61,709 bases of DNA, taken from contig JACQJP010000032.1 of assembly GCA_016204975.1 (NCBI GenBank), positions 1-61,709 on the forward strand, written 5' to 3'. The notes below the pieces were generated by a model. It had not been told where the DNA came from. It saw only the letters and a program-made list of their open reading frames with translations, and did no database searches. The position numbers were made by a program, and so were the translations under genes. Below, in pieces: positions 6,752 to 61,709 of this stretch (within the stretch, counting starts at the first letter, position 1; each line of letters opens with the position of its first letter). The stretch is from Elusimicrobiota bacterium. GTDB lineage: Bacteria > Elusimicrobiota > Elusimicrobia > JACQJP01.

Positions 6752-6761
6752 TTTCTCTCGC

Positions 6762-10445: not shown

Positions 10446-11302
10446 TGCCCGCCTGCCTGCTTGGGATTCTAGCACCCTCCGCAGCGCTTCGGGTACCAGC
10501 CGGGCTCGCAGAGCTCGCCAGCGTCCTAGCACTGTCGCTTTTCTTTTTTAGTTGCGGTTCGCAGGAGTTGGCGGAGAATGTTCCCCCGCCGGTCCGCATC
10601 CTCATCGATCCGGGACATGGGGGATATGATCCCGGCGCGATGCGCAAGATTGAAGGCCAGTGGGTTCGGGAGAAGCAGGTAGCCTTGAGCATCTCTTTGA
10701 ATCTGGCAGAGCGTTTCCAGAAAGATTCCCGTTTTCTGGTTTCCCTCACCCGCTATGGAGACAGCCACCTCTCTCTTTACAGACGCTCCTCGATGGCGCA
10801 CCGGGAAAGGCCGGATCTTTTCGTCTCCGTCCACTTAAACGCCGCCGGCAGCCGCCACAAGCAGGGGATAGAGATCTTCGTGCATTCCGATTATCCTATG
10901 AACTCCCGGGGGCGCCGGGTCCGCCGCTATTCCCCTTGCGATGAGGATCGGACCAAGAAGGTGCTGCCCCTGTCGCCTGCTGAGATGCGCCGCCAGTGGA
11001 ACCGGGAGGCCTCCTTGGCGGGGCATCAGATTCAGAAGGCTTTGCGGGAGGAGACGGGGATGCGGAATATCTGGCTCAAGAAGCGGGATTTCTTCGTATT
11101 GCGCTGTGTGCCGGCTCCGGCGGTTCTGATGGAGTTGGGTTTTTTGTCCAACCCCAAAGACGCGGAGAGAATTGTAGAGGGCCGTTTTCGGGAGCAGTTG
11201 GTGAATGGAATCTATCGGGGGATTCTTGCTTATTTGGAGCAAAGATCCTCGCAGTCGCGGGAGGCTTCCGTCTCCGGAGCCCAGGGACCAGAACCGGGGT
11301 AA
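10445..11302 (+). CDS. N-acetylmuramoyl-L-alanine amidase (Amidase_3), lipoprotein
   Basis: ATG 10445 overlaps the queE stop (ATGA-type). Lipobox-like FFFSC. ILIDPGHGGYDPGA..DLFVSVHLNA..ELGFLSN. The signal peptide carries a Family-2 repeat. Confidence 0.85.
   Translation: MPACLLGILAPSAALRVPAGLAELASVLALSLFFFSCGSQELAENVPPPVRILIDPGHGGYDPGAMRKIEGQWVREKQVALSISLNLAERFQKDSRFLVSLTRYGDSHLSLYRRSSMAHRERPDLFVSVHLNAAGSRHKQGIEIFVHSDYPMNSRGRRVRRYSPCDEDRTKKVLPLSPAEMRRQWNREASLAGHQIQKALREETGMRNIWLKKRDFFVLRCVPAPAVLMELGFLSNPKDAERIVEGRFREQLVNGIYRGILAYLEQRSSQSREASVSGAQGPEPG
10469..10532 (-). repeat. Family-2 57-nt mini-element, copy a (inside amidase signal-peptide coding region)
   Basis: ctagcaccctccgcagcgcttcgggtaccagccggg..ccagcgtcctagcac. 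ctagcac at 10469 and 10526 (57 nt apart). Confidence 0.85.
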
Positions 11303-11470: not shown

Positions 11471-11499
11471 AAACCCACTGTCCGCGAGTGGGTTTTTTT
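11471..11499 (+). terminator. Rho-independent terminator-like hairpin
   Basis: AAACCCAC-tgtccgcga-GTGGGTTT followed by a T run (7 T in total). Ends 1 nt before ATG 11500. Confidence 0.6.
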
Positions 11500-17924: not shown

Positions 17925-17935
17925 AGGGAGGAGGA

Positions 17936-17997
17936 CTGGCGGAGTCGTCCCGCCTCTGGCGGGCCGCCGTACCCGGAGCACTGCGGAGGGTGCTAGG
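17936..17997 (+). repeat. Family-2 mini-element, copy b (5' UTR of TPR gene, ends at the start codon)
   Basis: ctggcggagtcgtCCCGCCtctGGCGGGccgccgtacccggagcactgcggagggtgctagg, followed directly by ATG. Confidence 0.85.
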
Positions 17998-18558
17998 ATG
18001 TCATTGATTCGTTTGGGCGCAGTTGCCGGAACGGCTTTTTTACTGGCTACCTCTTGGGCTGCGCAGGGCGCCAGCACGCTGGACCCCTCTGGGGTCCCGG
18101 CGGGTACCCGGAGCTCTGCGCAGGGTGCGCGCCAAGAGGCGCTCAAGCTTCTGGAACCCTATCGGGAAAACCGGGTGATCTCCAACCTGCTGGATTGGTC
18201 CGCCCGGAAAGAGGAAAACCGACCAGCGGCGCCGCAGGAACGGGAGCTTTTGGAGGCGGTCCAAATTTTGGAGAGGCTGTCTATTGAGAACCCAACCAAC
18301 GATTGGTTCTCCGGCCTGTTGACGGTGCTCTACCAACGGCAGGGGAGGGCGGCGGATGCGGAGAAGGCCTTCGAGCGTCTGCGCACCCTGCGCCCCCGGG
18401 ACCCTCACATCTACCAGATGCTGGCGTTGGTTTACGAAAAGCAAGGCAAGAAGGAGGATGCCCTCCAGGCCTGGCGGAAGCTGCTCGAGCTCGAAGCTCC
18501 GGAGCCTTTGAGACGGCTGGCCCAGAAGCATATTGCCCATTTGCAAAATGTTCCCTAA
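17998..18558 (+). CDS. Secreted TPR-repeat protein
   Basis: Signal peptide MSLIRLGAVAGTAFLLATSWAAQGA and C-terminal TPR-like helices. A GGAGGG SD lies 7 nt upstream. A Family-2 repeat sits just after the signal peptide. Confidence 0.7.
   Translation: MSLIRLGAVAGTAFLLATSWAAQGASTLDPSGVPAGTRSSAQGARQEALKLLEPYRENRVISNLLDWSARKEENRPAAPQERELLEAVQILERLSIENPTNDWFSGLLTVLYQRQGRAADAEKAFERLRTLRPRDPHIYQMLALVYEKQGKKEDALQAWRKLLELEAPEPLRRLAQKHIAHLQNVP
18059..18133 (+). repeat. Family-2 mini-element, copy c (inside TPR CDS just after the signal peptide)
   Basis: ctgcgcaggg at 18059 and 18116 (57 nt apart). Stem GGACCCC tct GGGGTCC. Confidence 0.88.
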
Positions 18559-21628: not shown

Positions 21629-22355
21629 GGGTTTTCGTAGAGGTTTTTCTATCTTACTTCATTTCTTCCTCCTCTGCCAGGGCGCTCTTTTTCGTGCGGG
21701 GGATGGGGAGGCTCAGGGGTTTGATCTGAAAAACTCCGAAGTCCATCTGCAGCTTTTTTATTTTTCCTCCCACCCACGCGAGCCCGGATGGATTCAAAAG
21801 CAGATGGAGGATTCCGAGATCGAGGAAGCATTCCGAACCGCCGTCTCCGGCACGATTTTGGAGGAGCTGATGAAACAGAAAAACCGGCAGGAGTTGGAAA
21901 GGCGTTGGATTTGGACCCAGCGTTCCGGCATCGAGATGCATGAGGATCAGAAGCTGATTTTGGACGCCTACAACCTGGGTGGTCAGCCCAGGGAGCTGTT
22001 GCTGCAGCCGCAAGCTCTGGGCCGCCCGGAGGCGGAGATCCGTCTGAGGGTTCCGGAGGCCTCTATCGAGTGGAAATGGGGTTGGCTGGGTCTCCACCGC
22101 TTTGTTCGCGGCATTCGTCCCGCCCGCTACCGCTTGAGCTTGAAGGCTTTGAAAGATTTCCAGCAAGAGCCCGGCCCTTCCACCTATGTCATCCGTCCGG
22201 GAGGTTTTTTTGGAACGCCGGAGACGATCCGCGTCTGGCCGATGCCCTTAAGCTCGCAGGGCTTCCAGGATCTGGAGGAGTATCGCCGGTGGCTTTACCA
22301 GCGCTCCTCCACCGTCACCCCTAAGACTTTAGACACGCCACAGCCTGTGCCTTGA
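21627..22355 (+). CDS. Hypothetical secreted protein
   Basis: Signal-peptide-like N-terminus MGFRRGFSILLHFFLLCQGALF. No family recognised. Divergent from the HEAT gene. Confidence 0.5.
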   Translation: MGFRRGFSILLHFFLLCQGALFRAGDGEAQGFDLKNSEVHLQLFYFSSHPREPGWIQKQMEDSEIEEAFRTAVSGTILEELMKQKNRQELERRWIWTQRSGIEMHEDQKLILDAYNLGGQPRELLLQPQALGRPEAEIRLRVPEASIEWKWGWLGLHRFVRGIRPARYRLSLKALKDFQQEPGPSTYVIRPGGFFGTPETIRVWPMPLSSQGFQDLEEYRRWLYQRSSTVTPKTLDTPQPVP

Positions 22356-23688
22356 TCTGCCGGGCTGCCTTCTCCCAACGGTAGTCTTGGCTGGCCTCAA
22401 AGGCGTGGTCTCCCATCTGCTTCCTCTGAGTCTGTGTCAGCTGCAGCATCCTTTGCAGGCCCTCTGTGAGGACCTGGGGCGCTCCTCTGCGGCTGGGATA
22501 GGTGACCAGGATCGCGTAGCCGGGCTTGAGGAGCGCTTGCGCGCCGTAATGCGCGCAGCTCAGGATGGGACATCTGGCCTGCATGGCCTCCAGAATGGTC
22601 AGCCCGAAGCTTTCGTGCCAGGAAGGGGAGATGAAGAAGTCCGAGAGCTGGAGAAAGGCCGTTTTCTGGACCTCCGTGAGGTGCCCGGGGAAATCCACTC
22701 GGATCTTTTTGAGCTTTCCCGCCAACTTTCTGAGCCGGTGAGAGTAGGCCGCCCCTCTCATGAAGGCCGGTTCGCCGCAGAGAAAGACTCGCAGGGGGGT
22801 GTCCGTCCTTCTTTCCAGATTTCCCAGGGATTCCAGCAGGATGTCCAAACCCTTCTCCGGAGAAAGTCGCCCGATGCAGGTGGCGACCATTTCCCCGTCT
22901 TCTACTGAGTAATCCTTGCGGATTTTCTGAGTTTCCTGCGCAACTGTCTCGGCATCGGCGAGGTTTCGGGCGGCAATCCCCCAGGGCACGATTTCGATTT
23001 TAGCGCGCAGCTCCTTTTCTTTTAGAAGATGGCGGTAGTTTTCAACCAACACCTCTTTCATGGCCGCAGAGGGAACCAGGAGCTTTTGGCAGTACCGCAC
23101 GGCGTGCTGCTCTTTCTCAAAGACCAGCCTCAGAACCTCCGGAACCAGAGATCTTAGCCGAAGCCGCTCTAGGCGATGGAAGAGGCGGGTGTAGAGGGAA
23201 TTTGGGAGAAGGCCTTTGAGGTAGATCTTTCCGAAGTAGTCCACTACGTCCACGTGGAGGATGGTCAGGCAGGGCACTCCCCAGCGCGCCAGCTTTTTAA
23301 AGTCCGGCCCCTCCGAGATGTCGTTGGAGACGAGGACCAGGGAGGAGGTGCGGATATGGGGGAGTATTTTTTCTTCGATGGCTTTTTCAAAGGCGCGGCA
23401 AAACCGGGCGTATTGCATCTCGTTGAGCCGGACCAGAGGCCGGGCCCCTAAGGCGTGTTGAGCCGGCACTCCCCGACCGTAGTCGGGTCCCGCAGGCTGA
23501 AGGTCCGTGGGGATAGGCAGGGTCTGGTAGAAGGGTTCCCTCCAGGAGTTGCCGGGGCCTAGGACGCTGAGTTCGAGGTCCGGATCGTTTTGCCATCTCA
23601 GGCTCAACTCCCTGGCCACCCGGGCTCCTCCTCCCAATGGAAGGTCTTCCGGAAATCCGGAGTGGGCGGCGGTGTAGATTAGATGCAC
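22321..23688 (-). CDS. Glycosyltransferase family 1 (GT-B, GT4-like)
   Basis: C-terminal GT1 core (..RLSPEKGLD..FISPSWHESFGLTILEAM..). GTG start abuts the stop of the upstream GYF gene. Carries one antisense Family-1 repeat (..PAGPDYGRGVPAQHALGARP..). Confidence 0.85.
   Translation of the reverse strand: MHLIYTAAHSGFPEDLPLGGGARVARELSLRWQNDPDLELSVLGPGNSWREPFYQTLPIPTDLQPAGPDYGRGVPAQHALGARPLVRLNEMQYARFCRAFEKAIEEKILPHIRTSSLVLVSNDISEGPDFKKLARWGVPCLTILHVDVVDYFGKIYLKGLLPNSLYTRLFHRLERLRLRSLVPEVLRLVFEKEQHAVRYCQKLLVPSAAMKEVLVENYRHLLKEKELRAKIEIVPWGIAARNLADAETVAQETQKIRKDYSVEDGEMVATCIGRLSPEKGLDILLESLGNLERRTDTPLRVFLCGEPAFMRGAAYSHRLRKLAGKLKKIRVDFPGHLTEVQKTAFLQLSDFFISPSWHESFGLTILEAMQARCPILSCAHYGAQALLKPGYAILVTYPSRRGAPQVLTEGLQRMLQLTQTQRKQMGDHAFEASQDYRWEKAARQIKAQAVACLKS
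23437..23497 (+). repeat. Family-1 57-nt mini-element, copy A (antisense inside glycosyltransferase CDS)
   Basis: aggccgggcccctaaggcgtgttgagccggcactccccgaccgtagtcgggtcccgcaggc. Flanking AGGC repeats are 57 nt apart. Confidence 0.9.
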
Positions 23689-25800
23689 CTATGGTTCCGT
23701 GGGGTCCGGGGGGTAGGTCAGATCCGCTTCTTGGGATGGCCGCTCTTCGGGGACCTCTTCAGGAGGAGGGGGTTGGGAGGTAGGGGGTTCGGCAATCTCC
23801 GGAATATTTTTCGGGATTCCAGGCAGGATAAATTCCGCCTCCTTCGCCGGTGCCGGAGGGGGCGCCTGCGGAGTTTTTTTCCGAGCGACCCTTTGGGCTC
23901 TTTCCTTTTTCGGGGCAGCGGGGTAGGCGCCGGCCAACAGCTCGTTGGCCTTTTTATTGAGGCCTTTCACCGATTTTTTATTCATGTCCACCTCAAAGAG
24001 ATAGATGAACTCCTGGGCGGAGCGTTGGTTTTTAGAAACCCCAAGCCGGTACTGCACCGCAAAGGTTTGGGCCTCAATGAGCACCACGGACCAGTCCGAT
24101 TGGAAATCTTTGGAGTTTTCTGGGACATGCAGGGATTGAATCAGGGCGACCAGGCGTCTTTTGTCGTTGGGGAGTTGGTAGTTTTGCAGGAAGGAAATGA
24201 CCGCGTCGCGGCTGGGAGGTTCTGTGCCTTCCGCCGGCTCCATCTCCGGGATGGGCAGGGTGGATCGTGAGGCCTGGATCTGCAAGGTTCCGGACGTGCC
24301 GGCACCCTCCGCAGGGCTTTGGGTGCCCTCTGGCCCCGGTGCGACACCGGGGGGCGCGCCGGATTCTCCGATCGCCTTGGCGATGGAAAGGGAGTCGGGT
24401 TCGGGTTTGGGCAACTCTTTCTGGATGCGGGCCAAGTTCCGGCTGTCCTGGTACAGGGTGATGACCGCCAGGGCGGTCAACACCAGCAGGACCCCGCCAA
24501 ATCCTACGATCAGAACCTTGGAGGTTTTGCGGGAGGGTTTCTTTTGAGGTTCCAGGGCTTCAAAGGGCTCCTCGGGAAGCTCCGCAGGACCCTTTTCTTG
24601 AGACCTCTCTGCCGTCATCTCCTCCCGGGTTTCTGGAGGGGGTTCGCCGGCTTCTGGTTCCGGATAGAGCTGGGGTTCGACCATAGTGTCTTCTGGCGGA
24701 GCAGCCCCGCCTATGGCGGGCCGCCGTACCCGGAGCTCGTCAGGCCCCACTGGGGCTTCAAACGTTCCTGAGCGCTGTGAAGGGGCTGCGGAAGGTGCTG
24801 GCGGTTGGGAGCGAAGGTCCTCCGGGGTTCCCATGGGCGGTGTGGGTTCTGCGGAGGCGGGAGTCGCAGCTTCCGAAGGTGAGGCGCCGAAGAAAGCGTT
24901 GGGATCCTCCAGGGGGGAACCCATAAAGAGGCTCTCCGTACTTGCGGGAGCTGGTTGGGGAAAAGCGCTGGAAGTTTCCTGGAGAGGCGCGGAAGGTTTC
25001 AGTTTTTTTAATTCTTCGCCGGCCTGGACGACGGCCTCTTGGGCCTCCTGCAGATCCCTGTTTTTTTGATCAATCTCCCCGATTTTTTTATGCAGGTCCT
25101 CTCGGGTCGAATCCAGCTTGTTTTGCAGTTCCTGGAGCCTGTTTTGCAGAAATCCCTTTTCCTCTTGGAGGACCTTGAGCAGGCCTTCCGTCTGCCCCAG
25201 TTTATATTTTGAGACCTCATCTTCCTTGGCGGTTTCTTTCAGGCGCATCTCCAGCTCGCGGATGCGGTCTTTGCTTCTATTCAGGACGGAGGCCACCTCC
25301 ACCTCTTGTTTTTGGAGTTTTTGCTGGCTTTGCTGGAGTTGGGACTCCAACTGGCCGATGCGCGTCCAGGACTGCTCCAGTGTCTGTTCCTTTTTGAGCA
25401 GATCGGTTTTGAGGGAGTCTAAATGTTGGAGGGCCGATTGAGCTTTCTGAAGTTCTTCATTGACTTTTTCCAGGTGGAGGCGCAGGGTGCTGTTTTCCTT
25501 CTCCAGGGTCTCCAAATCTTTGATCTCCCTGGAACCCGTCGGGGTTGGAAAATCCGCTAGAGCCGGCAGGTGGCTCAAGGAGACGGAGGCCGGGTTGAGC
25601 CGTTGGCTCTTAAAGACAGACTCCAGCTCCGGCAGGGTTTCTGCCCGCACCCAGTCCCCCTCGCTTTCCCCGGTGGCTCCCTCGGGACACAGGAGCAGGT
25701 CCTGGTGGAAGCCCGCCACCTTGGCGAGCTCTTCTGGAGGGTGCGGTCCTACGACCTGCCCTTGGAGGTAGGCCCAGTATTTCATCGAAACGCGCTCCAA
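23689..25800 (-). CDS. GYF_2-domain / long coiled-coil / Pro-rich / single-TM protein
   Basis: N-terminus YWAYLQGQVVGPHPPEELAKV..WVRAETLPEL (GYF-like). About 200 aa of heptad-rich coiled coil. Pro/Ala-rich linker, one TM helix (VLIVGFGGVLLVLTALAVITL) and a C-terminal globular domain. Contains two Family-2 repeats. Confidence 0.7.
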   Translation of the reverse strand: MERVSMKYWAYLQGQVVGPHPPEELAKVAGFHQDLLLCPEGATGESEGDWVRAETLPELESVFKSQRLNPASVSLSHLPALADFPTPTGSREIKDLETLEKENSTLRLHLEKVNEELQKAQSALQHLDSLKTDLLKKEQTLEQSWTRIGQLESQLQQSQQKLQKQEVEVASVLNRSKDRIRELEMRLKETAKEDEVSKYKLGQTEGLLKVLQEEKGFLQNRLQELQNKLDSTREDLHKKIGEIDQKNRDLQEAQEAVVQAGEELKKLKPSAPLQETSSAFPQPAPASTESLFMGSPLEDPNAFFGASPSEAATPASAEPTPPMGTPEDLRSQPPAPSAAPSQRSGTFEAPVGPDELRVRRPAIGGAAPPEDTMVEPQLYPEPEAGEPPPETREEMTAERSQEKGPAELPEEPFEALEPQKKPSRKTSKVLIVGFGGVLLVLTALAVITLYQDSRNLARIQKELPKPEPDSLSIAKAIGESGAPPGVAPGPEGTQSPAEGAGTSGTLQIQASRSTLPIPEMEPAEGTEPPSRDAVISFLQNYQLPNDKRRLVALIQSLHVPENSKDFQSDWSVVLIEAQTFAVQYRLGVSKNQRSAQEFIYLFEVDMNKKSVKGLNKKANELLAGAYPAAPKKERAQRVARKKTPQAPPPAPAKEAEFILPGIPKNIPEIAEPPTSQPPPPEEVPEERPSQEADLTYPPDPTEP
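24296..24362 (-). repeat. Family-2 mini-element, copy d (inside GYF coiled-coil CDS)
   Basis: gtgccggcaccctccgcagggctttgggtgccctctggcccc... The flanking repeat spacing here appears to be 60 rather than 57 nt. Confidence 0.7.
24693..24745 (+). repeat. Family-2 mini-element, copy e (partial, inside GYF coiled-coil CDS)
   Basis: ctggcggagcagcCCCGCCtatGGCGGGccgccgtacccggagc is nearly identical to copy b over about 45 nt. The 3' part has diverged. Confidence 0.7.
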
Positions 25801-28032: not shown

Positions 28033-29121
28033 ATGCCGCGCAGAGTCCGATGGGTGGTGGGGATGTTTTTGCTCCTGGGGCCGCCGGAGCTGGGCTGGAC
28101 CCAGGATGTGGGGGAGTCCCTGCGGTTTCAACAGCGGGTCCCACAGGCCGGGCCCCAAGGGCGTGTGGAGCCGGCACTCCCCGACCGTAGTCGGGTCCCA
28201 CAGGCCGGGGCCCCTCCGGGGACGGTGGTGTTCGAGACGGTGGCCAGCGACCCTCCAGTCGCTGCCTTTAACGCCCTTTTGTTTCACGGAATCCTCACCA
28301 CCGACCGGATTGAATTTCAGGCCTCGATCCAAACAGAGGATGGAACTTGGAGCCCGTGGAAAAAAGCCTATCTGAAGCGCCACCCCAACGGCCGTTTTTG
28401 GGCCCGGGTCCGCTGGAAACAGATGCACCAGGCTCCGGTCAAGCTCCGGGCGGTCAGTCTGGGCATCTCCGGCGAGTGGACCCTGCAGGTGTTGGATGTA
28501 GAGGTTTTCTTACATGAAGAAGGAGATTCTTCGGGTTCCGGGCTTTTGCCCTCATTGCAATCCCTGCCCCCTTCCTGGATCCTCCGGGATCGGTGGGGGG
28601 CGTATCCTCCCCGCGAGCCCTATGAGCCTCACGTGCCGGATCGGATCACGCTGCACCATACCGCGGGACTTCAGACCTTTGCCTTGGAAGATTCCCTGGC
28701 GGAGGTGCGCTGGATCCAGGATTTCCACCAAAACGGCAGGGGCTGGAACGACATCGGCTACCACTTTTTGGTGGATGGGGAGGGAAGGGTTTTTCAGGGA
28801 AGGCCGGTTCAGGCGGTGGGAGCCCACGTCAAGGACGGCAATGCCGGAAACGTGGGGATTGCGCTGTTGGGATATTTTCACGCTCCGGTTTCGGATCAAC
28901 CCAGCGAGCTTCAGCTTCAGGGATTTATCCAGGCTGGGCGTTGGGTGGTGCGGAGTTTTGGGGCAGGCTCGGAGACTTTGCGGGGACACAGGGACTACAA
29001 CCCCACGGCCTGCCCGGGCGATTTTCTCTACCCCCGCCTGGAATTTTTGAGGGAGCAGCTTCATTGGGATCTTATTCCCAGTTTTGACCCCACCGCTTTT
29101 TCCTTTCTCTTGCCTAAATAA
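28033..29121 (+). CDS. N-acetylmuramoyl-L-alanine amidase (Amidase_2 / PGRP fold)
   Basis: ITLHHTAG..WNDIGYHFLVDGEGRVFQGR..GAHV..GNVGIALLG..LRGHRDYNPTACPG. A sense Family-1 repeat sits after the signal peptide (RVPQAGPQGRVEPALPDRSRVPQAG). Confidence 0.88.
   Translation: MPRRVRWVVGMFLLLGPPELGWTQDVGESLRFQQRVPQAGPQGRVEPALPDRSRVPQAGAPPGTVVFETVASDPPVAAFNALLFHGILTTDRIEFQASIQTEDGTWSPWKKAYLKRHPNGRFWARVRWKQMHQAPVKLRAVSLGISGEWTLQVLDVEVFLHEEGDSSGSGLLPSLQSLPPSWILRDRWGAYPPREPYEPHVPDRITLHHTAGLQTFALEDSLAEVRWIQDFHQNGRGWNDIGYHFLVDGEGRVFQGRPVQAVGAHVKDGNAGNVGIALLGYFHAPVSDQPSELQLQGFIQAGRWVVRSFGAGSETLRGHRDYNPTACPGDFLYPRLEFLREQLHWDLIPSFDPTAFSFLLPK
28136..28208 (+). repeat. Family-1 mini-element, copy B (sense inside Amidase_2 CDS)
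   Basis: A 16-nt direct repeat gggtcccacaggccgg at 28136 and 28193 (57 nt apart) brackets the conserved core. Confidence 0.92.
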
Positions 29122-29530: not shown

Positions 29531-29593
29531 GGCCTGTGGGACCCGACTACGGTCGGGGAGTGCCGGCTCAACACGCCTTTGGGGCCCGGCCTG
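29531..29593 (-). repeat. Family-1 mini-element, copy C (intergenic, 21 nt upstream of receiver gene 29123..29509, sense to it)
   Basis: The reverse complement matches the consensus. GGCCTG repeats at 29531 and 29588 are 57 nt apart. Confidence 0.92.
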
Positions 29594-31590: not shown

Positions 31591-32253
31591 TTATGGGCCT
31601 CCTGGTGCTGTGTCTATGGAATTTTGAGATTGCCGCTGCATCTGCTTGGTTTTTTGCAATTCCCTCCGGGCGCTCTCTTCTTGGCCCAGCCGGAGGTAGG
31701 TCTCGTAGAGATACTCATGGGTGAGAGCGTTTTGAGGAGCTATCTCCGCGGATTTTTCCAGAAGTCTTCTGGATTTTTTCACATCCCCTCCCAAGAGCCT
31801 GGGGAGCTTAAAATAAAGCCTTCCCAGCACTCGGTAAGCTCCCCCCTCGGAGTAAGCGGGATCCAGCTCCAGGACTTTCTGCATCTCCTCTTCCAGAATG
31901 CGGACATACCGGAATCGGCTCAGAAAAGAGCTCGCCTCAGCCAGCCGCCCGCTGGCCAGTCCCCGCCAGTAGTGTGCCGCGGCGCTTTCGGGATTTTCCC
32001 GGACCCACCGGGTCGCCAGCTCAAAGGCCGGGTGATATTGCTTCTGACGGTAGTGCTCCTGAACTCGTGCCGGCACGCTGGGGGCCTCTGGCCCCCCGGC
32101 CGGTACTTGTAGCACTGCGGAAAGTGCCGGCACGCCTGGCGCCTCGGCGGGGTCCCTGGCTAAGAAAGAGGGGCTCTGCTGTGCAACAGAATGGGAAGAG
32201 AAAATGAATAGCCAGATGAGCGAGGCAAATATCCCGGAGCCTTTCGAGTTCAA
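31591..32253 (-). CDS. Secreted TPR-like (TatT-like) protein
   Basis: Signal peptide. Helical-repeat C-terminus (..GGAYRVLGRLYFKLPRLLGGDVKKSRRLLEKS..). Stop is adjacent to the phosphatase start. A Family-2 repeat follows the signal peptide. Confidence 0.6.
   Translation of the reverse strand: MNSKGSGIFASLIWLFIFSSHSVAQQSPSFLARDPAEAPGVPALSAVLQVPAGGPEAPSVPARVQEHYRQKQYHPAFELATRWVRENPESAAAHYWRGLASGRLAEASSFLSRFRYVRILEEEMQKVLELDPAYSEGGAYRVLGRLYFKLPRLLGGDVKKSRRLLEKSAEIAPQNALTHEYLYETYLRLGQEESARRELQKTKQMQRQSQNSIDTAPGGP
32067..32141 (+). repeat. Family-2 mini-element, copy h (inside TatT-like CDS, which is on the minus strand)
   Basis: gtgccggcacgc at 32067 and 32124 (57 nt apart). Stem GGGGGCC tct GGCCCCC. 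Confidence 0.88.
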
Positions 32254-46270: not shown

Positions 46271-49200
46271 ATGCTGTGGGGCAGACAGATGCTCAGCGTC
46301 CAGTACGGCCCCTTTCACCCCATCTTGGAGGAAGCCCTTGTGGAGAAGCTGCAGAGCCTCAAGGCGGCAGATCCTTTTTGCCGGGTGGTGGTCGTGGCGC
46401 CTTCCCGAAGGCTCTGTGACCGGCTCCAGAGGCTTTTGGCCGTAGAGAAGGGGCTGGCCGTTTTCAACGTCCATTTCCATACCTTCTACAGCCTCGCTTT
46501 CCAGATTATCCGGGAGGGGGACCCTCGTCCGGTTACCTTGCTCTCGGACCGCCTGTTCCATGACTTTTTGGTGGATCACTTGTTGGAGGAAGATTTCCGG
46601 CCTCCGGGGTCCCACAGGCCGGGCCCCAAAGGCGTGTGGAGCCGGCACTCCCCGACCGTAGTCGGGTCCCGCAGGCCGAAGGGCTTTTTGCCCGCTTTGC
46701 GCGCCAGCCTCAAGGACTTGGTAGATTCCGGAGTGGAGCCGGAGAGGGTCCGGGAGCTTTTGGCCGAGACCGAGGAGTCCGGCAGGCCTCTGGTTCGGCT
46801 GGACCCGGAGGAGGCGAGGCGGCTTTTGGAGCTTCTGGATCTGCAGGAGCGCTACCAAAAGCATTTGGAGGAGCTGGGCGTGACTGTTCCCAGCGGCATG
46901 ATCCGGCTGGCGACGGAGCTGGCGCCGGGCTCTGCGTACCTGAAAGAATTTCAGGAGATTCTCTATTACGGTTTTTATGATCTGACCGGCATCCAGACCG
47001 ATTTTTTTGAGGCGGTCTCCAGACACCATCCGGCGACCTTGTTTTTTCCCTACCGCCATGGACACCCGGCCTTCGCTTTTGCCCGGAGGTTTTTCGAGGA
47101 GAAGCTTCATGCTGCGGGCCGAGTCCCCATCGCCCTGCAACCAGATGAGGGACGGCCTCCCGCGCCGGCACCCTCCGCAGGGCTGCGAGTACCGGCCGGG
47201 AGGCCAAAGGCCTCCAGCGTGCCGGTTCGGGTGTGGAATGCGGCGGGTCCCCGGGAGGAGTCCTGGACGGTGGCCAAGGAAATCTTAAAACTGGTTCGAG
47301 GAGGCTGCGCCTTTCACCAAATCGGTATTGTGGCGCGTACCCTGGAGCCCTACCGGATGGTTTTGCGCCAGGTCTTGGAGGAAAACCGGATACCGGCCTG
47401 CTTTTCCTCCGGAAGGCCTCTGCTGAGCCATCCGCTGCCCCGTTTTTGTTTCTCCCTGCTTTCTTTTAAGCAGAGGGCCTTTCCGGCCATCCTTTTTGAG
47501 GACCTGCTTTCCTCCCCTTATCTTTGCACACAGAGTTGGGGAGATCCGGAAAGACAGAAGCTCCTCCGGCGTGGCTTCAAGAGGCTGGCACAGAGGCTTC
47601 GGATTCAGCGCGGGTGGCTTCAATGGGAAGGCAAGGTGAGGAGCTTTCTGGAAGGCGGACTCTCTTTAGAAGGGGAGGAGCCGGAGCGGGAGGGCCGCCT
47701 GCTTTGGGAGTGGATCCGGGAGGTCCGCCGGAATCTGATCTGGGCTTTGCAGGAGCCAGCCCCTTGGAAGGTCCGAATTCAGCGTGCTCAACAGGTTTTG
47801 GAAAGGTACTTCCGGCTTCCTGCAGATGCGACCGATTTGGAGAAGCGTCTTTGGGACGGGACCTGTGCGACGCTTCAGGAGCTGGAGCCATTGGAGCTTC
47901 TGGGCATCGGTGCGGAGGAAGAGGTTTTTTTGGAAGCCTGGGAGGATAAGCTAAAGGCCGCAGAGTTTCAGGAGTTTCCAGGGGAGAATTTGGGAGTTCG
48001 GGTTTTGGATGCCATGTCCGCTCGGGGGGAGAGCTTTGCCTATCTTTTTTTGATTGGACTTCAGGAGGGGCTTTTCCCGCGCAAGGTGCGGGAGGACCCC
48101 TTGCTGCGCGATTCGGTGCGCCGGGTGCTGAGCTCCCCTGGAGGGTACGGGATTCGCCCCAAGCTGGAGGGATATGAGGAGGAGCGGCTCTTGTTTCATC
48201 TGCTGACTTCTTCAGCCCGGAAGGGGCTCTTCTGCATCTATTCCCGTTCTGACGAGGAAGGGAGGGCAAAGATTGCCTCCGTCTACCTGCAGGAACTGGC
48301 GCGCACCAGAGACATCTGTTTGGAGGATTCCAAGAAAAATAGAAGCATCTTGAAGCAGCCCCTGGCTAAGATTCGAGGAGAGCCTTGGGAGGTCTTGAGT
48401 CCCAAGGAGGTTTCCTTGCGGCTGGCCTTTTCCGGGCAATCCCCGGGCGGTTTTTTGGAAAGCCTGGGGAAGGAGGCGGAGCTCTTTCGCGGCCCGGCTG
48501 AGGCCTTGGAGGCCATGAATACCTACGGAAATCCCGGCGAATTTGATGGCCGGATCGGTCCCCCCCGACCGTTTCTAAAGGCGCTTCGCCGCTCCGGGCT
48601 CTCTCCCAGCGCCCTGGCCAGTTTGGCGCGTTGCCCCTTTCAGTTTTTTGCCTCCCGGGTGTTGAAGTTGGGGGAGGTGGAGGAGCCCCAGGAGCCGGGG
48701 ACCCTGTCTTCAAAGGATACCGGAAAAATCTACCATCGGGTTCTGGAACTTTTTTATCGGAAGCTTTTGGAGCAGGGATACTGGAAGGGGAAACGCTCCG
48801 GGTTTCCCCGGCAGGTTTTTGAAGAGTGCGAACAGCAGGTATTTCGTCAATACCACTGGAAGAGTCTGGGATTGTATCCCGTTTTGTGGGAGGTTTTGCG
48901 CGAACGGATGCTTGCGCATTTGAGAGAATTTCTCCTTGGGGACATTCAGAGGGTTCGGGAGAGTGGGCATCTTCCTGTATATTTTGAGCAGGAGTTTTCG
49001 GCGTCTTCTTCCCAAACCCTCTTGGGAAAGGGCCGGGAGCTTCTTTTGCACGGTTTTCCGGACCGGGTGGACTTAGATGAGGTCCGGAGGCGTTTTTGGG
49101 TCTTTGATTACAAGACGAGGGGTAAGAAGGGAAATCTCTTGGCGGAGGTTTTACGGGGCAACCAGCTCCAGCCTTTACTTTACCTGGAAATTCTTCTGGC

Positions 49201-49555: not shown

Positions 49556-52500
49556 GCACCCGTCGCAGCCCCCGGGTTTTGACGGACGAGGAGAGCCGTT
49601 GGGCGGCCCGCACGCACTTGGATGGGAACGCCGTGGTGGAGGCCGGCGCGGGGACGGGCAAGACGACGCTGCTGGTGGATCGTCTCATCTTTCTTCTGCT
49701 GGGCCGGCGCTGTCAGATTTCCCGGGCGGTGGCCCTGACCTTCACCGAGAAGGCCGCCGGAGAACTGAAGCGCAGGCTCGCGCAGACCTTGGAGGCGATA
49801 GTCCGTTGGGCGGGGCAGACCAATGGGGTATGCGATCCTCATCTGCTGCAGATCGTGCAGAGACTGCAATCGCAGTGGCGGCGCTCCAAACAGGAGATTG
49901 AGGTGTCGGCCCAGAGGGCGTTGCTAGAGATGGATCGGGCCTCCATCGGAACCCTCCATAGTTTCGCCGCAGATTTGCTGCGCCTGTACCCCTTGGAGTC
50001 GGGGATCTCCCCGGAGTTTCAGGTGGATGAGGGAAGGTCCTTTGAGGAGTTTTTCAGGTCGCAGTGGAGTCTTTGGCTGGACCGCGAGTTGGGGGAGGAG
50101 GCCCCGCGTAAGGGGTTGTGGAAAAAGCTTTTGCCGGAGGTGGGTCTGGAGGATTTGGCCTGCTTGGCCAGAGATTTGTGTCAGCTCAGAAGCTTGGAGG
50201 GGGTTGCCTCGTTGGAAAAAATTCGAGAAGCATTTGAGGTGGTGGGACCTTTTGTGGAAAGGTTTCGGCGAGAGCTTCTCCATAAGGACTGGCTCTCTTT
50301 CGATGGGCTCCTGGTCCGGGCCCGGGAGCTTTTGGTCGGCCATCGGACGGTGCGGGAGGATTTGAAGCGGACTTTTGAGGCCATTCTGATAGATGAGTTT
50401 CAGGACACCGATCCCCTCCAGGGAGAGATTCTGTTTTTCCTGTGCGAGAAAAGAGGGCAATCGGCGCGCTGTTGGGAGGAGGTGAATCTGGAGCCCGGAA
50501 AACTTTTTGTGGTGGGAGACCCCAAGCAGTCCATCTACCATTTTCGGGGGGCCGACATCGTCGCCTACCGCCGGTTCACCAGGCAGATGATTCGGCAAGG
50601 CTCGGAGCTTTTGCACCTGCAGGTCAATTTCAGAAGTCCGGCCGGCATTTTGGATCCGGTGCATGAGATATTTTCCAAAATCATGGACGGCCGCTCCCCC
50701 TATCAGGCGGATTATATCCCCATCTATCCCCATAAGAACTCCGAGCCTGTGGGACCCGACTACGGTCGGGGAGTGCCGGCTCCACACGCCTTTGGGACCC
50801 GGCCTGTGGAAGGTTCTGGGGTGGAGTGGGTTCAGGTGAGCTCCTCAAACCAGGCGGCGCCGGTCTCTGCGGAGGCGACCCGTCAGGCAGAGGCGGCCTG
50901 GATTGCGGAGTGGATTTCCTCCCACTGCTCCAAAAAAATTCTCTTCCGGGATGTGGCCATCCTTTTTAGAACCTCCACGCCTCACCCGCCTTATCTGGAG
51001 GCCTTGAGAGGCGCCGGCATCCCCTATGTAGTGACGGGGGAAAAGTATTTTTATTCGGCTCAGGAGGTGGTGGATTTTCAGAATCTTTTGTGTGCCTTGG
51101 AGGATCCCTATGATCCTGTCTCCCTGGTGGGTCTTTTGCGCTCGCCTTTGGTGGGCTTGACCGACTTGCAACTTTATGAACTCAGCCAAAAGGGCGCTTT
51201 ATGCTATCTTTCCGATCCGCCGAAAAACCTCTCTTGCAGCGCGCGCACAGCGGCTTTCTACCGCATGCTTCGGAGCTTCCACGCCCTCGTGGGCAGGATG
51301 CCCCTGAGCGAGTTGGTCCATCGCCTCTTAAATGATACCCATCTTGTGGAGCTTTGTTCCCTGGCCTACCATCGGGAGCAGACCGCCTCTAACCTCACCA
51401 AGCTTTTGCGCCTGGCTTCTGAGGCCGGGGAGTTTGCCGGCCGAACCCTTCGGGAGTTTGCCGGGGCTTTAGAGGAGGCGGTGGCCGGGCTGGAGGAGGA
51501 GGGGGAAAGCCCTCTGGCGGATGAGAACTTCAATGCGGTCCGAGTTTTAACGGTCCATAAAGCCAAGGGGTTGGAGTTTCCCGTCATTTTCCTTCCCAAT
51601 CTTTCGGCTGCGGTTTCCGGCTCCCGGCAGAGCCCATCCTGCCTTTGGGAGGAGGCCTCCCGGAGGGTGGGTTTTCGGTTGAGGCAGGCGGGGGTGGCCA
51701 CTCCTCAGATGCTCCTTTTAGAACAGGAAAAGAAGCTACGGGAGAAGGAAGAGGAGGTCCGGATTTTGTATGTGGCCATGACCCGCGCCCGGCACAAGCT
51801 CTTTCTCTTATCCAATGAGCATAAGGCCCCCCAGGGCTCTTTGAGCGGCCTGATCCAGAAGGCGGGGACTTTTCGGGCGGCTCGCGTCCATCGGATTTCC
51901 GTGCAGGAGCTAGGCAAGCCGAAGAGTGGAAGACAAGCAAAGGAAAAAACCGATTCTTCACAGGCCGGACCCCAAAGGCGTGTTGAGCCGGCACTCCCCG
52001 ACCGTAGTCGGGTCCCACAGGCTGGGTGGAGGCGTCTGGCTTTGGATTGGAAAGCGCGAGAGAAGAGATGGGCGGCGGTACAGGAGGCCCCGTGCTTTCT
52101 AAGTCCTACGGCGCTTTCCGAAAAGTCTCTCCGGGTCCCACAGGCCGGGCGGACTGGAACGGGATCCGGGCTTTTGGTGGGCCAGCTGTGCCATGCGGTG
52201 CTGGAGGGGTGGGATTTTGGATCCTCCCCTGCAAAACTCAAGGACCCGATCTTGCTAAAGGAGAAAATTCACAAGGCTCTGACGCAGATAGAGCGGGGGC
52301 GTTTTGGAGAGCCGGGGCTGGAGAAGGCTCTTGGAGAGGAGGCGGAGGAGATTCTGCACCGCTTTTTTGAATCCGAGGTTTACCGGCGGATCGCAGGCTC
52401 TCGTATTTTGGGGCGCGAGGTGCCCTTTCTATATCCCTATGGAAACCAGGTGGTCCGGGGCAGTATGGATCTGCTTTATGAGTGGCGGGGCCGCTACAGG

Positions 52501-52728
52501 GTGGCTGATTATAAGACGGACCGCGTGCCGGACCCCAAAGGCGTGTTGAGCCGGCACTCCCCGACCGTAGTCGGGTCCCACAGGCCGGCATTCGAGATGC
52601 GCGCTTGGGCGGGGGAGTACCGGCAGCAGCGCCGGATGTATCTGGAGGCGGTCCGGAGGGGGACCGGGTGGAAGGATTGGAAGTTTGAGGTCATTTTTTT
52701 AAGGTTGGGCAAGAGCGTGATTTTATAG
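49552..52728 (+). CDS. addA: AddA / UvrD-family helicase-nuclease subunit A
   Basis: GTG start overlapping the addB stop. Walker A AGAGTGKTT, DEFQDT, VGDPKQSIY, ..TVHKAKGLEFP.., and C-terminal RecB nuclease ..GSMDLLYE..VADYKTD... Three Family-1 repeats plus one solo repeat end, all in frame. Confidence 0.9.
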   Translation: MSTRRSPRVLTDEESRWAARTHLDGNAVVEAGAGTGKTTLLVDRLIFLLLGRRCQISRAVALTFTEKAAGELKRRLAQTLEAIVRWAGQTNGVCDPHLLQIVQRLQSQWRRSKQEIEVSAQRALLEMDRASIGTLHSFAADLLRLYPLESGISPEFQVDEGRSFEEFFRSQWSLWLDRELGEEAPRKGLWKKLLPEVGLEDLACLARDLCQLRSLEGVASLEKIREAFEVVGPFVERFRRELLHKDWLSFDGLLVRARELLVGHRTVREDLKRTFEAILIDEFQDTDPLQGEILFFLCEKRGQSARCWEEVNLEPGKLFVVGDPKQSIYHFRGADIVAYRRFTRQMIRQGSELLHLQVNFRSPAGILDPVHEIFSKIMDGRSPYQADYIPIYPHKNSEPVGPDYGRGVPAPHAFGTRPVEGSGVEWVQVSSSNQAAPVSAEATRQAEAAWIAEWISSHCSKKILFRDVAILFRTSTPHPPYLEALRGAGIPYVVTGEKYFYSAQEVVDFQNLLCALEDPYDPVSLVGLLRSPLVGLTDLQLYELSQKGALCYLSDPPKNLSCSARTAAFYRMLRSFHALVGRMPLSELVHRLLNDTHLVELCSLAYHREQTASNLTKLLRLASEAGEFAGRTLREFAGALEEAVAGLEEEGESPLADENFNAVRVLTVHKAKGLEFPVIFLPNLSAAVSGSRQSPSCLWEEASRRVGFRLRQAGVATPQMLLLEQEKKLREKEEEVRILYVAMTRARHKLFLLSNEHKAPQGSLSGLIQKAGTFRAARVHRISVQELGKPKSGRQAKEKTDSSQAGPQRRVEPALPDRSRVPQAGWRRLALDWKAREKRWAAVQEAPCFLSPTALSEKSLRVPQAGRTGTGSGLLVGQLCHAVLEGWDFGSSPAKLKDPILLKEKIHKALTQIERGRFGEPGLEKALGEEAEEILHRFFESEVYRRIAGSRILGREVPFLYPYGNQVVRGSMDLLYEWRGRYRVADYKTDRVPDPKGVLSRHSPTVVGSHRPAFEMRAWAGEYRQQRRMYLEAVRRGTGWKDWKFEVIFLRLGKSVIL
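50746..50809 (-). repeat. Family-1 mini-element, copy E (antisense inside addA)
   Basis: cctgtgg at 50746 and 50803 (57 nt apart). Translated as VGPDYGRGVPAPHAFGTRPV. Confidence 0.92.
51959..52025 (+). repeat. Family-1 mini-element, copy F (sense inside addA)
   Basis: cacagg at 51959 and 52016 (57 nt apart). Translated as GPQRRVEPALPDRSRVPQAG. Confidence 0.92.
52133..52149 (+). repeat. Solo Family-1 terminal segment inside addA
   Basis: gggtcccacaggccggg alone, with no core. Translated as RVPQAG, in frame. Confidence 0.6.
52527..52588 (+). repeat. Family-1 mini-element, copy G (sense inside the addA nuclease domain)
   Basis: gccgg at 52527 and 52584 (57 nt apart). Translated as DPKGVLSRHSPTVVGSHRP, immediately after the DYKTD nuclease motif. 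Confidence 0.92.
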
Positions 52729-52758: not shown

Positions 52759-52818
52759 CAGTCCGGGCCCCAAAGGCGAGTTGATCCGGCACTCCCCGAC
52801 CGTAGTCGGGTCCCACAG
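52759..52818 (+). repeat. Family-1 mini-element, copy H (intergenic, 12 nt upstream of receiver gene 52831..53217, sense to it)
   Basis: cagtccgggccccaaaggcgagttgatccggcactccccgaccgtagtcgggtcccacag. The most diverged copy, but the hairpin is intact. Confidence 0.88.
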
Positions 52819-52830
52819 ACAGAGGCGCCA

Positions 52831-59905: not shown

Positions 59906-60565
59906 GTGCTGCTTACCTGTGTTTCCTCAGCGACCTCTGCCGGCTCATTGAAGGGATCAGCCTTTCGAGTTGTCGACTTGGGTTTGCGGGATTACCGGAA
60001 GGTCTGGACCCTGCAAAAGGAACTGGTGCGCAGGAGATCTGCGGGGAAGATTCCGGATACCCTTCTTTTGGTTGAGCACTCCCCTGTCTATACGGTTGGG
60101 AGGGGTTTGCGCAAGGATTCCCAGGATATCCCTTCTTCCATTCCCGTCTATGAGGTGGAGCGTGGAGGGGGCGTCACCTATCATGGCCCCGGCCAGTTGG
60201 CGGGGTACCCCATTCTCCATCTGCAGGAAAAGAACCTTAAAATTTCGGATTATTTTCGGTTGCTGGAGGAGGTGATTCTGCAGACCTTGGCAGCTTTCGA
60301 TATCTCCGGCAATAGGATTCGGGGATTTCGCGGGGTGTGGGTGGAAAAAAAGAAAATCGCCTCCATCGGCATCGCCGTCTCCCAGGGGATCGCCTACCAC
60401 GGTTTTGCGTTGAACGTCAATCCTGACTTGGATTTTTTTGAAAAAATTTGTCCCTGCGGCCTCCAGCCTTCCTCCATGACCTCGATGGAAAAAATTCTAA
60501 ACGGCTCTCCTTCCATGGCGGCGGTCCGGCAGGAACTCTCCTCCACCTTCCGGTCTACTTTCTAG
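59906..60565 (+). CDS. lipB: Octanoyltransferase LipB
   Basis: ..LLLVEHSPVYTVGR..RGGGVTYHGPGQL..KIASIGI..HGFALNV.. motifs. Closes the lipoate/ODH cluster. Confidence 0.88.
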   Translation: MLLTCVSSATSAGSLKGSAFRVVDLGLRDYRKVWTLQKELVRRRSAGKIPDTLLLVEHSPVYTVGRGLRKDSQDIPSSIPVYEVERGGGVTYHGPGQLAGYPILHLQEKNLKISDYFRLLEEVILQTLAAFDISGNRIRGFRGVWVEKKKIASIGIAVSQGIAYHGFALNVNPDLDFFEKICPCGLQPSSMTSMEKILNGSPSMAAVRQELSSTFRSTF

Positions 60566-60628
60566 CACGCTGGCGCCCCCTGGGGGGCGCTTGGCGGGCG
60601 CCCGAAGCACTGCGAAGGGTGCTAAAGG
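60562..60628 (+). repeat. Family-2 mini-element, copy g (intergenic, starts at the lipB stop codon)
   Basis: ctagcacgctgGCGCCCCctgGGGGCGCttggcgggcgcccgaagcactgcgaagggtgcta. Confidence 0.8.
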
Positions 60629-60716
60629 GACCTTTGGTCCCGGAGGTTTTTGGCAAAGGTCCTAGGAACTCCTAGGACCTTTTTCTTTTGTTTTCTAGGA
60701 CTTTGGACCCATAGAG
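60625..60716 (+). repeat. Family-3 repeat, copy 3 (downstream of lipB)
   Basis: gggacctttggtcccggaggtttttggcAAAGGTCCTAGGaactCCTAGGACCTTTttc..ctaggactttggaccc. Contains a perfect 12-bp inverted repeat. Confidence 0.7.
60654..60694 (+). terminator. Rho-independent terminator after lipB
   Basis: 12-bp perfect stem AAAGGTCCTAGG-aact-CCTAGGACCTTT followed by ttttcttttgtttt. Confidence 0.7.
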
Positions 60717-60746
60717 GTTTTATGGGGATGTGGTAGCATTGATTCA

Positions 60747-61079: not shown

Positions 61080-61709
61080 TTGCCAAGTTCTTATCCGCCT
61101 TGATTTGTGGGAGTCTCATTTTGACCTCCCCGGGTTTGGGGAGTTATCAATCTTTGGCCGGTGGGTTGCGGAAGGCTCCGGCCGGGAAGGCCGCAGCGGT
61201 AGGGGTGTCTCCTGTTTTGCCCCCTCTCCTTGTTTTTGGGCGAGTCCAATTCCCCCGGTTGATTCAGGTGGATGGGGGATTTGTCCGGCCCTACAATATC
61301 GTTGACGATCAGATCCGCTATGAGCGGATCGGTTTGGAGGAGGCGCAGGGTTTGCTGGAGCAGGGGGTGGAGGCGGTTTCTTTTGCAAGCCCGGAGCTTC
61401 TAGTGAAGGAGAAGGAAGCCTTGAGGGTTTGGGTGGCTCAGGGGCAGAAGACCGCCCGGCAAGAACTGGAGGGTGTGGAAGCGCATTTGCGGCAAGAGGG
61501 CTACGGCGGCATCCTGGATATGGTGGCTTCTCAAGGAGGGACTCCGCAAAACTCAGACAGGTTTGCACAACTTTCTGCGGTTGCCTTTGACTTGAATCAG
61601 CGTGAAGAAAGGCCTGTCTATCCTCAGGAGGTTGCTCCTATCCAGGCCGGGCCCCAAAGGCGTGTTGAGCCGTCACTCCCCGACCGTAGTCGGGTCCCAC
61701 AGGCCGGTC
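61076..61709 (+). CDS. Hypothetical secreted protein (3' end cut by window edge)
   Basis: Read by hand; absent from the track because there is no stop in the window. ATGA overlap with the previous stop. MIAKFLSALICGSLILTSPGLG signal-like N-terminus. The frame stays open to base 61709 and runs through a sense Family-1 repeat (QAGPQRRVEPSLPDRSRVPQAG). Confidence 0.55.
   Translation, partial: MIAKFLSALICGSLILTSPGLGSYQSLAGGLRKAPAGKAAAVGVSPVLPPLLVFGRVQFPRLIQVDGGFVRPYNIVDDQIRYERIGLEEAQGLLEQGVEAVSFASPELLVKEKEALRVWVAQGQKTARQELEGVEAHLRQEGYGGILDMVASQGGTPQNSDRFAQLSAVAFDLNQREERPVYPQEVAPIQAGPQRRVEPSLPDRSRVPQAG
61643..61707 (+). repeat. Family-1 mini-element, copy I (sense inside partial CDS at window end)
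   Basis: caggccgg at 61643 and 61700 (57 nt apart). Confidence 0.9.

Follow-up and report, generated by a model that had tools for sequence, protein, structure and literature searches.

Two families of very small, probably mobile repeats with fixed ends in an Elusimicrobiota contig

Introduction

Small repeats lying in frame within bacterial genes are already known. Two families of small repeats found largely inside genes, here termed family 1 (F1) and family 2 (F2), are described from contig JACQJP010000032.1 (assembly GCA_016204975.1) of an uncultured Elusimicrobiota bacterium sampled in a North California groundwater study; the entire 61.7-kb contig (~58% G+C, positive GC skew along its full length) was analysed and is referred to as the window. 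Among described systems, REP/REPIN-RAYT and IS200/IS605 elements move as single-stranded DNA with precise ends and no target duplication, cleavage taking place a few nucleotides from the foot of a hairpin by an enzyme acting in trans. Mycobacterial interspersed repetitive units (MIRUs; ~50–77 bp) occur dispersed and in short tandem arrays, have lengths compatible with read-through and lie between the genes of operons, not inside conserved domains; we know of no description of a fixed junction-like target for them. Cyanobacterial small dispersed repeats (SDRs) are mobile, far below 100 nt, have a conserved secondary structure and form nested insertions, and their mobilising mechanism is not known; to our knowledge, neither a period that is a multiple of three (3n) nor a junction-like target nor tandem dimers have been described for them. 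In 2008, Elhai et al. reportedly described SDRs of 21–27 nt in Nostocales. Rickettsia palindromic elements (RPEs) are selfish DNA, short non-coding repeats that lie in frame in unrelated housekeeping genes, with several families per genome (PMC10969869). [quoted passage not shown] REPINs are very small, hairpin-dependent elements of tens of nucleotides (PMC3116915).

A first-pass annotation of the window, made from the sequence alone, had reported insertions of 57 nt between flanking direct repeats in both families and had proposed a molecular ruler common to them or, as the other explanation, purifying selection for insertions of 3n. The present analysis indicates that F1 and F2 are probably mobile elements with fixed ends, inserted at targets that resemble the junction of those ends.

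Results

Family 1 copies and their junction

F1 is represented by nine copies, which align without gaps to one consensus at 93–100% pairwise identity (mean 95%) and show a repeat-to-repeat distance of exactly 57 nt in every case, free of insertions and deletions; the nine 57-nt copies of the first-pass annotation were all recovered (Table 1). The exact flanking repeats at this period span 3–18 nt (median 7 nt). In the focal copy, the 18-mer CGGGTCCCACAGGCCGGG starts at 28135 and occurs a second time 57 nt on. When the consensus was used as a BLAST query against the window, the nine known copies and one isolated 18-mer at 52132–52150 were returned, with no other match. A blind histogram was also compiled of every exact repeat in the window with a length of 7 nt or more and a spacing of 20–150 nt; 57 nt was the commonest spacing (score 25, compared with ~14–17 for other multiples of three), and the excess, made up solely of the known copies, supports the distance singled out in the earlier annotation. 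Neither the histogram nor a further search of the window gave a third family at the 57-nt period. Six of the nine copies, and probably seven, lie inside coding sequences; seven share one orientation, on the leading strand, a bias that is not significant.

Flank intervals were mapped on the 57-nt unit; all of them overlap, with midpoints within 6 nt (P ~1e-7 on a circle), and one junction, between G11 and G12, accommodates all nine copies (unit q12-q68). The unit delimited in this way reads 5'-GCCGG(G/A)CCCC...GTCGGGTCCC(A/G)CAG-3' and has a length of exactly 57 nt. Of the left host flanks, eight end in AG (seven in CAG); of the right host flanks, 8/9 start with GC, and the reconstructed pre-insertion site is AG^GC (caret, insertion point) in seven of the nine, at an AGGC frequency in the window of 0.7% (P ~3e-14). 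F1 was inserted between (C)AG and GC, at a target resembling the 3' end of the unit joined to its 5' end (CACAG^GCCGG), and the variable flank is best described as the extent of the target's likeness to this sequence, not as a target duplication of variable length. The flanks had been regarded as variable in length and unlike a fixed-length target duplication; the latter point holds, and the former gives way to a fixed CACAG^GCCGG junction that fits every copy.

The isolated 18-mer at 52132 is a perfect match to the flank of the focal copy and lies downstream of copy 51959, at 123 nt from the right flanking repeat of that copy. Its order is that of the 3' end followed by the 5' start, i.e. of a unit-unit junction. 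Internal deletion of dimers may have left both this 18-mer and the long F1 flanks behind.

Family 2 copies and their junction

Eight F2 copies, most of them inside coding sequences, were identified in the window with an nhmmer profile. Their periods are 57 nt (four copies), 60 nt (two), 105 nt (one) and possibly 63 nt (one), all multiples of three. The four copies previously placed at 57 nt (10469, 18059, 32067 and 47164) were measured at this value with flanks of 7, 10, 12 and 5 nt, and the 60-nt estimate for copy 24296 was confirmed. Three others had been described as having no measurable flank; two of these could be measured (60562 at 60 nt with a 3-nt flank, 24693 at 105 nt with a 7-nt flank), and 17952 only weakly (63 nt). 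With periods of 57, 60, 105 and possibly 63 nt in F2, the proposed ruler common to both families was not borne out.

In five of the six measurable F2 copies, the flanks cover the centre of a palindrome of 10 nt (GTGCC^GGCAC or GTGCT^AGCAC) and contain its central CG or TA. On the left, 4/6 copies have a host flank that ends in CCGG or CTAG, and a fifth has one that ends in TAG, the same as the 3' end of the unit (P ~3e-7). Most F2 copies insert like F1, at the centre of the 10-nt palindrome, and the duplication per F1 or F2 insertion is none or at most 2 nt.

Reading frame and comparison with orthologues

All genic copies of both families preserve the host reading frame, as had been stated for this DNA before. 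In-frame hosts are AddA (three copies), AddB (two), Amidase_2, Amidase_3, a GT1 glycosyltransferase, Mfd (three sites) and cobalamin adenosyltransferase. Five of the six frames of F1 are free of stop codons, as are four to six of the six frames of F2 in the copies checked. F1 DNA is translated in two forward and two reverse frames; with four frames, both orientations and copies between genes, the F1 peptide is not the selected feature. The periods of F1 and F2 are all multiples of three because of selection inside genes, where most copies lie. The intergenic F1 copies 29531 and 52759 are also exactly 57 nt, and F1 dimers have a 19-residue period, which upholds the earlier suggestion that the 57-nt increment is mechanistic and not solely selected.

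Net gains of 19 codons were found relative to orthologues, in agreement with an inserted length of 57 nt as originally given. Copy 52527 in AddA corresponds to a 19-residue gap in most of 39 aligned orthologues, within a conserved stretch; removal of 57 nt converts DYKTDRVPDPKGVLSRHSPTVVGSHRPAFEM to DYKTDRVPAFEM, which matches the orthologue sequence DYKTDR(V/I)PA. Judged from this alignment, the net gain at the site is exactly 19 codons, and the 5-nt flank GCCGG (conserved codons V-P-A) is host sequence and not element-borne. At copy 50745, AddA is 19 residues longer than its orthologues, and the loop without these residues measures 13 (12–14 in orthologues). Further proteins of the same metagenome-assembled genome (MAG) were recovered by peptide searches (NCBI locus tags with the prefix HY402_). 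Mfd (P0251), encoded on another contig of this MAG, has three F1 sites, and its tandem F1 dimer adds 38–39 residues, i.e. ~2 × 19, inside a conserved stretch compared with E. coli Mfd. An 18–19-residue gap was seen for cobalamin adenosyltransferase (P0246) in comparison with solved homologues. Tandem F1 units at a strict 19-residue period were found in P0241, P0243 and P0244 (other contigs, same genome), and tandem dimers in P0241, P0243 and P0251.

In formal terms, the F1 junction equals an element of 53 nt that duplicates the 4 bp AGGC. Both families might on this basis be ordinary MITEs, mobilised by a DDE transposase whose gene lies elsewhere, with 53 nt and a 4-bp duplication (AGGC in F1, CCGG/CTAG in F2) adding up to 57. 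The 4-nt core is present in both flanks of 7/9 F1 and 4/6 F2 copies, and with three of four nucleotides in a fifth F2 copy; where F2 copies have CTAG on the left, it is found on the right too; short terminal inverted repeats in F2, CAC(C)CT...AG(C)GTG, form a 10-nt palindrome with CCGG; and target-specific 4-bp duplications (CTAG or YTAR), known for the IS5 and IS701 families, also count in favour. At copy 52527, however, a fixed AGGC duplication is ruled out because the host sequence GT^GCCGG, with its conserved V-P-A, is ancestral. Flank enrichment also extends beyond 4 nt (e.g. C at −3 in 7/9 F1 copies), F1 has no convincing terminal inverted repeat (only subterminal GGGCCCC/GGGTCCC), 53 nt is unusually small, and no parent insertion sequence was seen in the window, which is without a transposase. 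GGCC as a 4-nt F1 duplication was dropped, as it fits only five of the nine copies. The DDE-type MITE reading fits F2 fairly well and F1 poorly, and is on the whole considered unlikely.

Hairpins and relation of the families

F1 contains one invariant 6-bp hairpin, CCCGAC-CGTA-GTCGGG, which ends 8 nt before the 3' end. In single-strand folds, the first five nucleotides of F1 lie opposite CCGGC, upstream of the hairpin, and the ends of F2 pair with each other. The F2 hairpin (6–9 bp) ends ~10 nt before the 3' end, and its sequence varies between copies with complementarity kept; in 7/7 pairs both sides have changed, and the share of paired cells is 88%, compared with 57% in shuffles (0/500 shuffles reach the observed value), for 17-mers around each hairpin that were cut out by eye. 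Because the stem is maintained by compensatory changes, the F2 hairpin is, on the evidence of covariation, needed for propagation. No Rfam match was obtained for F1 or F2 at gathering thresholds or at permissive E-values. A ribozyme, riboswitch or tRNA-derived origin was rejected, as Rfam and tRNA/tmRNA scans gave no relevant match.

The segments GCCGGCAC, GGCCGGG and CCAAAGG(C) occur in the same order in F1 and F2, and both families combine a subterminal hairpin with a junction on a short palindrome. Homology between them was not significant in circular alignments against 500 shuffles (25–151 of 500, P ~0.05–0.3); from their segments and architecture, the two may be distant relatives. The agreement of two unrelated families in one length had been offered as evidence for a common mechanism; given their possible relatedness, and as one coincidence among ~20 lengths of 3n, it carries little weight.

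Copies elsewhere and assembly checks

Logan contig L002 (run SRR12113384), an independent assembly, begins inside copy 29531 (L002 1-30) and runs into the same host flank; because the element–host junction is reproduced there, the insertions are not an artefact of one assembler. Searching genome_contigs with the F1 core gave one real match, L001 (JACQJM010000172.1, 4244–4295), which belongs to another Elusimicrobia MAG of that groundwater study (53% G+C). This F1 copy is 94–98% identical, ends at the same CACAG, lies at a contig end and represents either horizontal spread of F1 or a mis-binned contig. In metagenome_contigs, an F1 25-mer gave no match and a 20-mer only three chance matches (L003–L005); the F1 core had no match in viral_contigs. 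P0248/L006 was a weak peptide match and not F1, and P0252, which has a 24-residue tandem repeat with only a chance likeness to the F1 peptide, was likewise rejected. Contig ends fall in F1 copies in the window contig (61643–61709), L001 and L002. F1 repeats fragment short-read assemblies of this organism.

These data also bear on the reading that the repeats are not mobile at all, being instead a selected 19-residue peptide module or RNA motif, or an artefact of short-read metagenome assembly. It would agree with the in-frame position of all genic copies and with the nature of the window, a metagenome contig of MEGAHIT type with a repeat at its end. The same DNA, however, is found in four frames, in both orientations and also between genes, it has no Rfam match, the independent Logan assembly reproduces one junction, and insertions lie exactly between conserved AddA residues with the flanking host residues intact. 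Absence of mobility is close to refuted and retains hardly any probability.

Feature coordinates and gene content

Table 1. Coordinates of F1 and F2 copies and of the solo 18-mer in the window.
Feature	Position	Strand	Unit	Period (nt)	Flanking repeat	Setting
F1 copy	23437..23497	+	23439-23495	57	AGGC (4 nt)	antisense, in frame in GT1 glycosyltransferase gene 22321-23688 (minus)
F1 focal copy	28135..28209	+	28147-28203	57	CGGGTCCCACAGGCCGGG (18 nt)	in frame directly after signal peptide, Amidase_2 protein 28033-29121
F1 copy	29531..29593	-	29534-29590	57	6 nt	intergenic, 22 nt upstream of response-regulator gene
F1 copy	46607..46678	+	46618-46674	57	7 nt exact, 15 nt with one mismatch	in frame in AddB
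F1 copy	50745..50809	-	50747-50803	57	8 nt	antisense, in frame in AddA
F1 copy	51959..52022	+	51964-52020	57	7 nt	in frame in AddA
F1 copy	52527..52588	+	52527-52583	57	GCCGG (5 nt)	AddA
F1 copy, most diverged	52759..52820	+	52762-52818	57	CAG (3 nt), 5 nt with one mismatch	intergenic, between AddA and response-regulator gene
F1 copy	61643..61707	+	61646-61702	57	8 nt	contig end, assembly breaks in repeat
Solo 18-mer CGGGTCCCACAGGCCGGG	52132..52150	+				AddA, in frame, six codons, peptide RVPQAG; no unit attached
F2 copy	10469..10532	+		57	CTAGCAC (7 nt)	in frame in Amidase_3 gene
F2 variant (copy 17952)	17930..18001	-		63 (possible)	weak, 4 nt, counted by hand; no 57-nt flank	CCCGCC/GGCGGG hairpin
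F2 copy	18059..18127	-		57	10 nt exact, 12 nt with one mismatch	
F2 copy (24296)	24298..24362	+		60	GCCGG	antisense, in frame in 703-residue open reading frame
Composite F2 variant	24693..24804	-		105	CTGGCGG (7 nt)	nested insert of ~48 nt
F2 copy	32067..32135	-		57	GCGTGCCGGCAC (12 nt)	
F2 copy	47164..47225	+		57	GCCGG	in frame in AddB
F2 copy	60562..60624	-		60	3 nt	at stop codon of gene 59906-60565

Gene content of the 61.7-kb window is housekeeping only and includes genes for cell shape and cell wall (mreBCD, PBP2/RodA, several cell-wall amidases), RNase E/G, DNA repair (mutS, mutL, addB-addA) and central metabolism (aconitase, 2-oxoacid:ferredoxin oxidoreductase, 2-oxoacid dehydrogenase complex). 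The best homologues of AddA and AddB all come from Elusimicrobia/Elusimicrobiota MAGs and are only ~42% identical, and there is therefore no close relative for a DNA-level comparison with empty sites. The addB-addA operon (46271–52728) makes up ~10% of the window and holds 5/17 repeat copies and the solo 18-mer. Large DNA-repair enzymes seem to accumulate F1 and F2 insertions, with an enrichment that is only marginal (addB-addA; Mfd with its three F1 sites). Three Amidase_3 (N-acetylmuramoyl-L-alanine amidase) paralogues lie within 6 kb (6744–8291, 10253–11302 and 11488–12384); together with the Amidase_2 gene at 28033–29121, two of these four amidase genes have repeat insertions near the N-terminus.

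Some individual F2 copies have features of their own. Removal of copy 60562 restores a TAA stop codon to gene 59906–60565, which with the insert stops at the TAG supplied by the element's GCTAGC end. The nested ~48-nt insert in 24693–24804 has its own hairpin (GGCCCCACTGGGGC) and may be a member of a third small element family. Just beyond the limits of copy 18059, its host flanks (18040–18150) contain an inverted repeat of 8 nt, CCTCTTGG ... CCAAGAGG. Near the end of the contig, a 28-nt inverted repeat (60655–60682; 93% self-complementary, core GGGACC-TTT-GGTCCC) downstream of gene 59906–60565 is probably a terminator, and two tandem 45-nt units (60795–60884; 73% identical), unrelated to F1 and F2, lie inside an unannotated pair of open reading frames (60695–61063 minus, 60747–61079 plus).

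Discussion

F1 and F2 are interpreted, with doubt slightly outweighing confidence, as two families of ultra-small, non-coding, non-autonomous mobile repeats integrated by a trans-acting enzyme. A specific single-strand or circular, enzyme-mediated route is possible rather than probable. The intermediate would be one unit with joined ends, present as a small single-stranded circle or as a rolling-circle/tandem copy; these forms are favoured because a 57-nt double-stranded circle is physically implausible. Its insertion at junction-like sites would be the work of a site-specific enzyme that recognises the hairpin and has its gene elsewhere in the genome, for which an HUH-type single-strand transposase (IS200/IS605, REP-RAYT, IS91) would be the first guess and a small recombinase the second. 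Every insertion would recreate junction-like sites at both of its borders, by which existing copies would become preferred targets and tandem dimers would form. Persistence of copies in genes would follow from a 3n unit, five stop-free frames out of six and Pro/Gly/Arg-rich peptides placed in loops. In the most far-reaching version, considered improbable, this would be an undescribed mobilisation system in which a 57-nt unit (single-stranded circle or rolling-circle copy) is integrated, free of duplication, where the chromosome base-matches its joined ends; such units would be the smallest autonomous-looking ones known in bacteria and would routinely remodel loops of core DNA-repair proteins.

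Several observations weigh against the enzyme-mediated interpretation. HUH transposases normally read only 4–5 nt of the target on one side, whereas target similarity in F1 and F2 is found on both sides of the junction, often over 6–8 nt. The long F1 flanks (18, 15 and ~16 nt; unit q0-17, q1-15 and ~q6-21) and the solo 18-mer at 52132 fit no model considered. F1 has only one clear hairpin, with an overall fold no better than that of shuffles (z = −0.3), and the flank of F2 copy 18059, alone among the measurable copies, lies off the palindrome centre. Neither a transposase nor a recombinase nor a reverse transcriptase was found among the genes of the 61.7-kb window, and no empty-site allele came to light at the DNA level; orthologues of AddA and AddB reach only ~42% identity at best.

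Spread without an enzyme, by microhomology-primed templated copying from existing copies, is rather doubtful, though it accounts for the long contiguous matches. A nascent or broken 3' end would anneal to a copy elsewhere through a short match, copy one period up to the same match in the flanking repeat of that copy and go back to its original template, with hairpins promoting stalling and strand switching. Exactly one period would arise automatically, as both sides rely on one and the same short match, and junctions would be confined to the flank zone, as only sequence duplicated in the donors is usable; in both families a hairpin lies just upstream of this zone. Contiguous identity at the junctions (median 7 nt, longest 18 nt) exceeds what a 2–4-nt core would lead one to expect, and the window contains no mobility genes. 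Templated copying gives no account, however, of ~one copy per 7 kb when other direct-repeat-flanked sequences did not spread, and the junctions cluster within 6 nt, more tightly than the 18-nt duplicated zone allows. Dimers would donate junctions anywhere in the unit, and none were seen outside q0-q21; long flanks cannot arise from random targets; and the finding of an almost identical copy in a second genome, which differs in G+C content, speaks for a system that is active and can be transferred.

If integration by a trans-acting enzyme is correct, F1 and F2 are among the smallest mobile units known, at 57 nt, with no target duplication and, in F1, without clear terminal inverted repeats. The rule that the target must resemble the joined ends of the element would then point to an uncharacterised enzyme or repair route. 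The insertions are a direct route for adding 19-residue loops to essential proteins (AddA, AddB, Mfd) in an uncultured phylum. F1 and F2 also break short-read assemblies and create spurious hypothetical proteins in annotations. The novelty is limited, as the Rickettsia elements had already shown that small repeats can be tolerated in frame.

Comparison with described elements

The insertion mode of F1 and F2 does not match any described class. Bacterial MITEs are AT-rich, usually longer than 100 bp, and marked by clear inverted repeats at their termini and by a fixed-length duplication; F1, by contrast, has no clear terminal inverted repeats, and its flank is sequence-specific and variable in length (exact flanks of 3–18 nt, not a fixed-length target duplication). 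In F2, the ends match weakly as inverted repeats (CACCCTCC compared with CACGCTGG, 5/8, terminal CAC...GTG). Like SDRs, both families are mobile-type repeats below 100 nt with structure, and F2 shows a nested insertion. MIRUs are similar in unit size and are likewise dispersed and tandem, but F1 lies inside conserved domains.

REPs are almost entirely extragenic, start with GTAG and usually form inverted doublets, whereas F1 is mostly genic, forms no doublets and carries GTAG solely within the loop of the 6-bp hairpin. No RAYT (Y1 HUH transposase) gene is present in the window. In common with non-autonomous derivatives of IS200/IS605, F1 has one fixed pair of ends in all nine copies, and both families have a subterminal 3' hairpin (8 nt from the end in F1, 10 nt in F2). 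IS200/IS605-type elements insert 3' of a specific target of 4–5 nt and have hairpins at both ends. The left flank is (C)AG in 7–8 of nine F1 copies and CCGG/CTAG/TAG in five of six F2 copies, but the right flank is constrained as well (GC in eight of nine F1 copies), unlike REP/IS200-type recognition of 4–5 nt on one side, and there is only one clear hairpin per unit. The features of a single-strand HUH element are only partly present.

Like RPEs, F1 and F2 lie in frame in unrelated protein-coding genes and are tolerated there as extra peptide segments. RPEs are ~100–150 bp, palindromic and encode one conserved peptide per family, whereas F1 is 57 nt, not palindromic overall and read in at least four frames; it further differs in its fixed ends, junction-like target and tandem dimers, in its Elusimicrobiota host and in the lack of an Rfam match. 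The closest functional parallel to F1 and F2 is the RPEs, and the closest mechanistic one the REP/REPIN-RAYT system together with IS200/IS605-derived elements.

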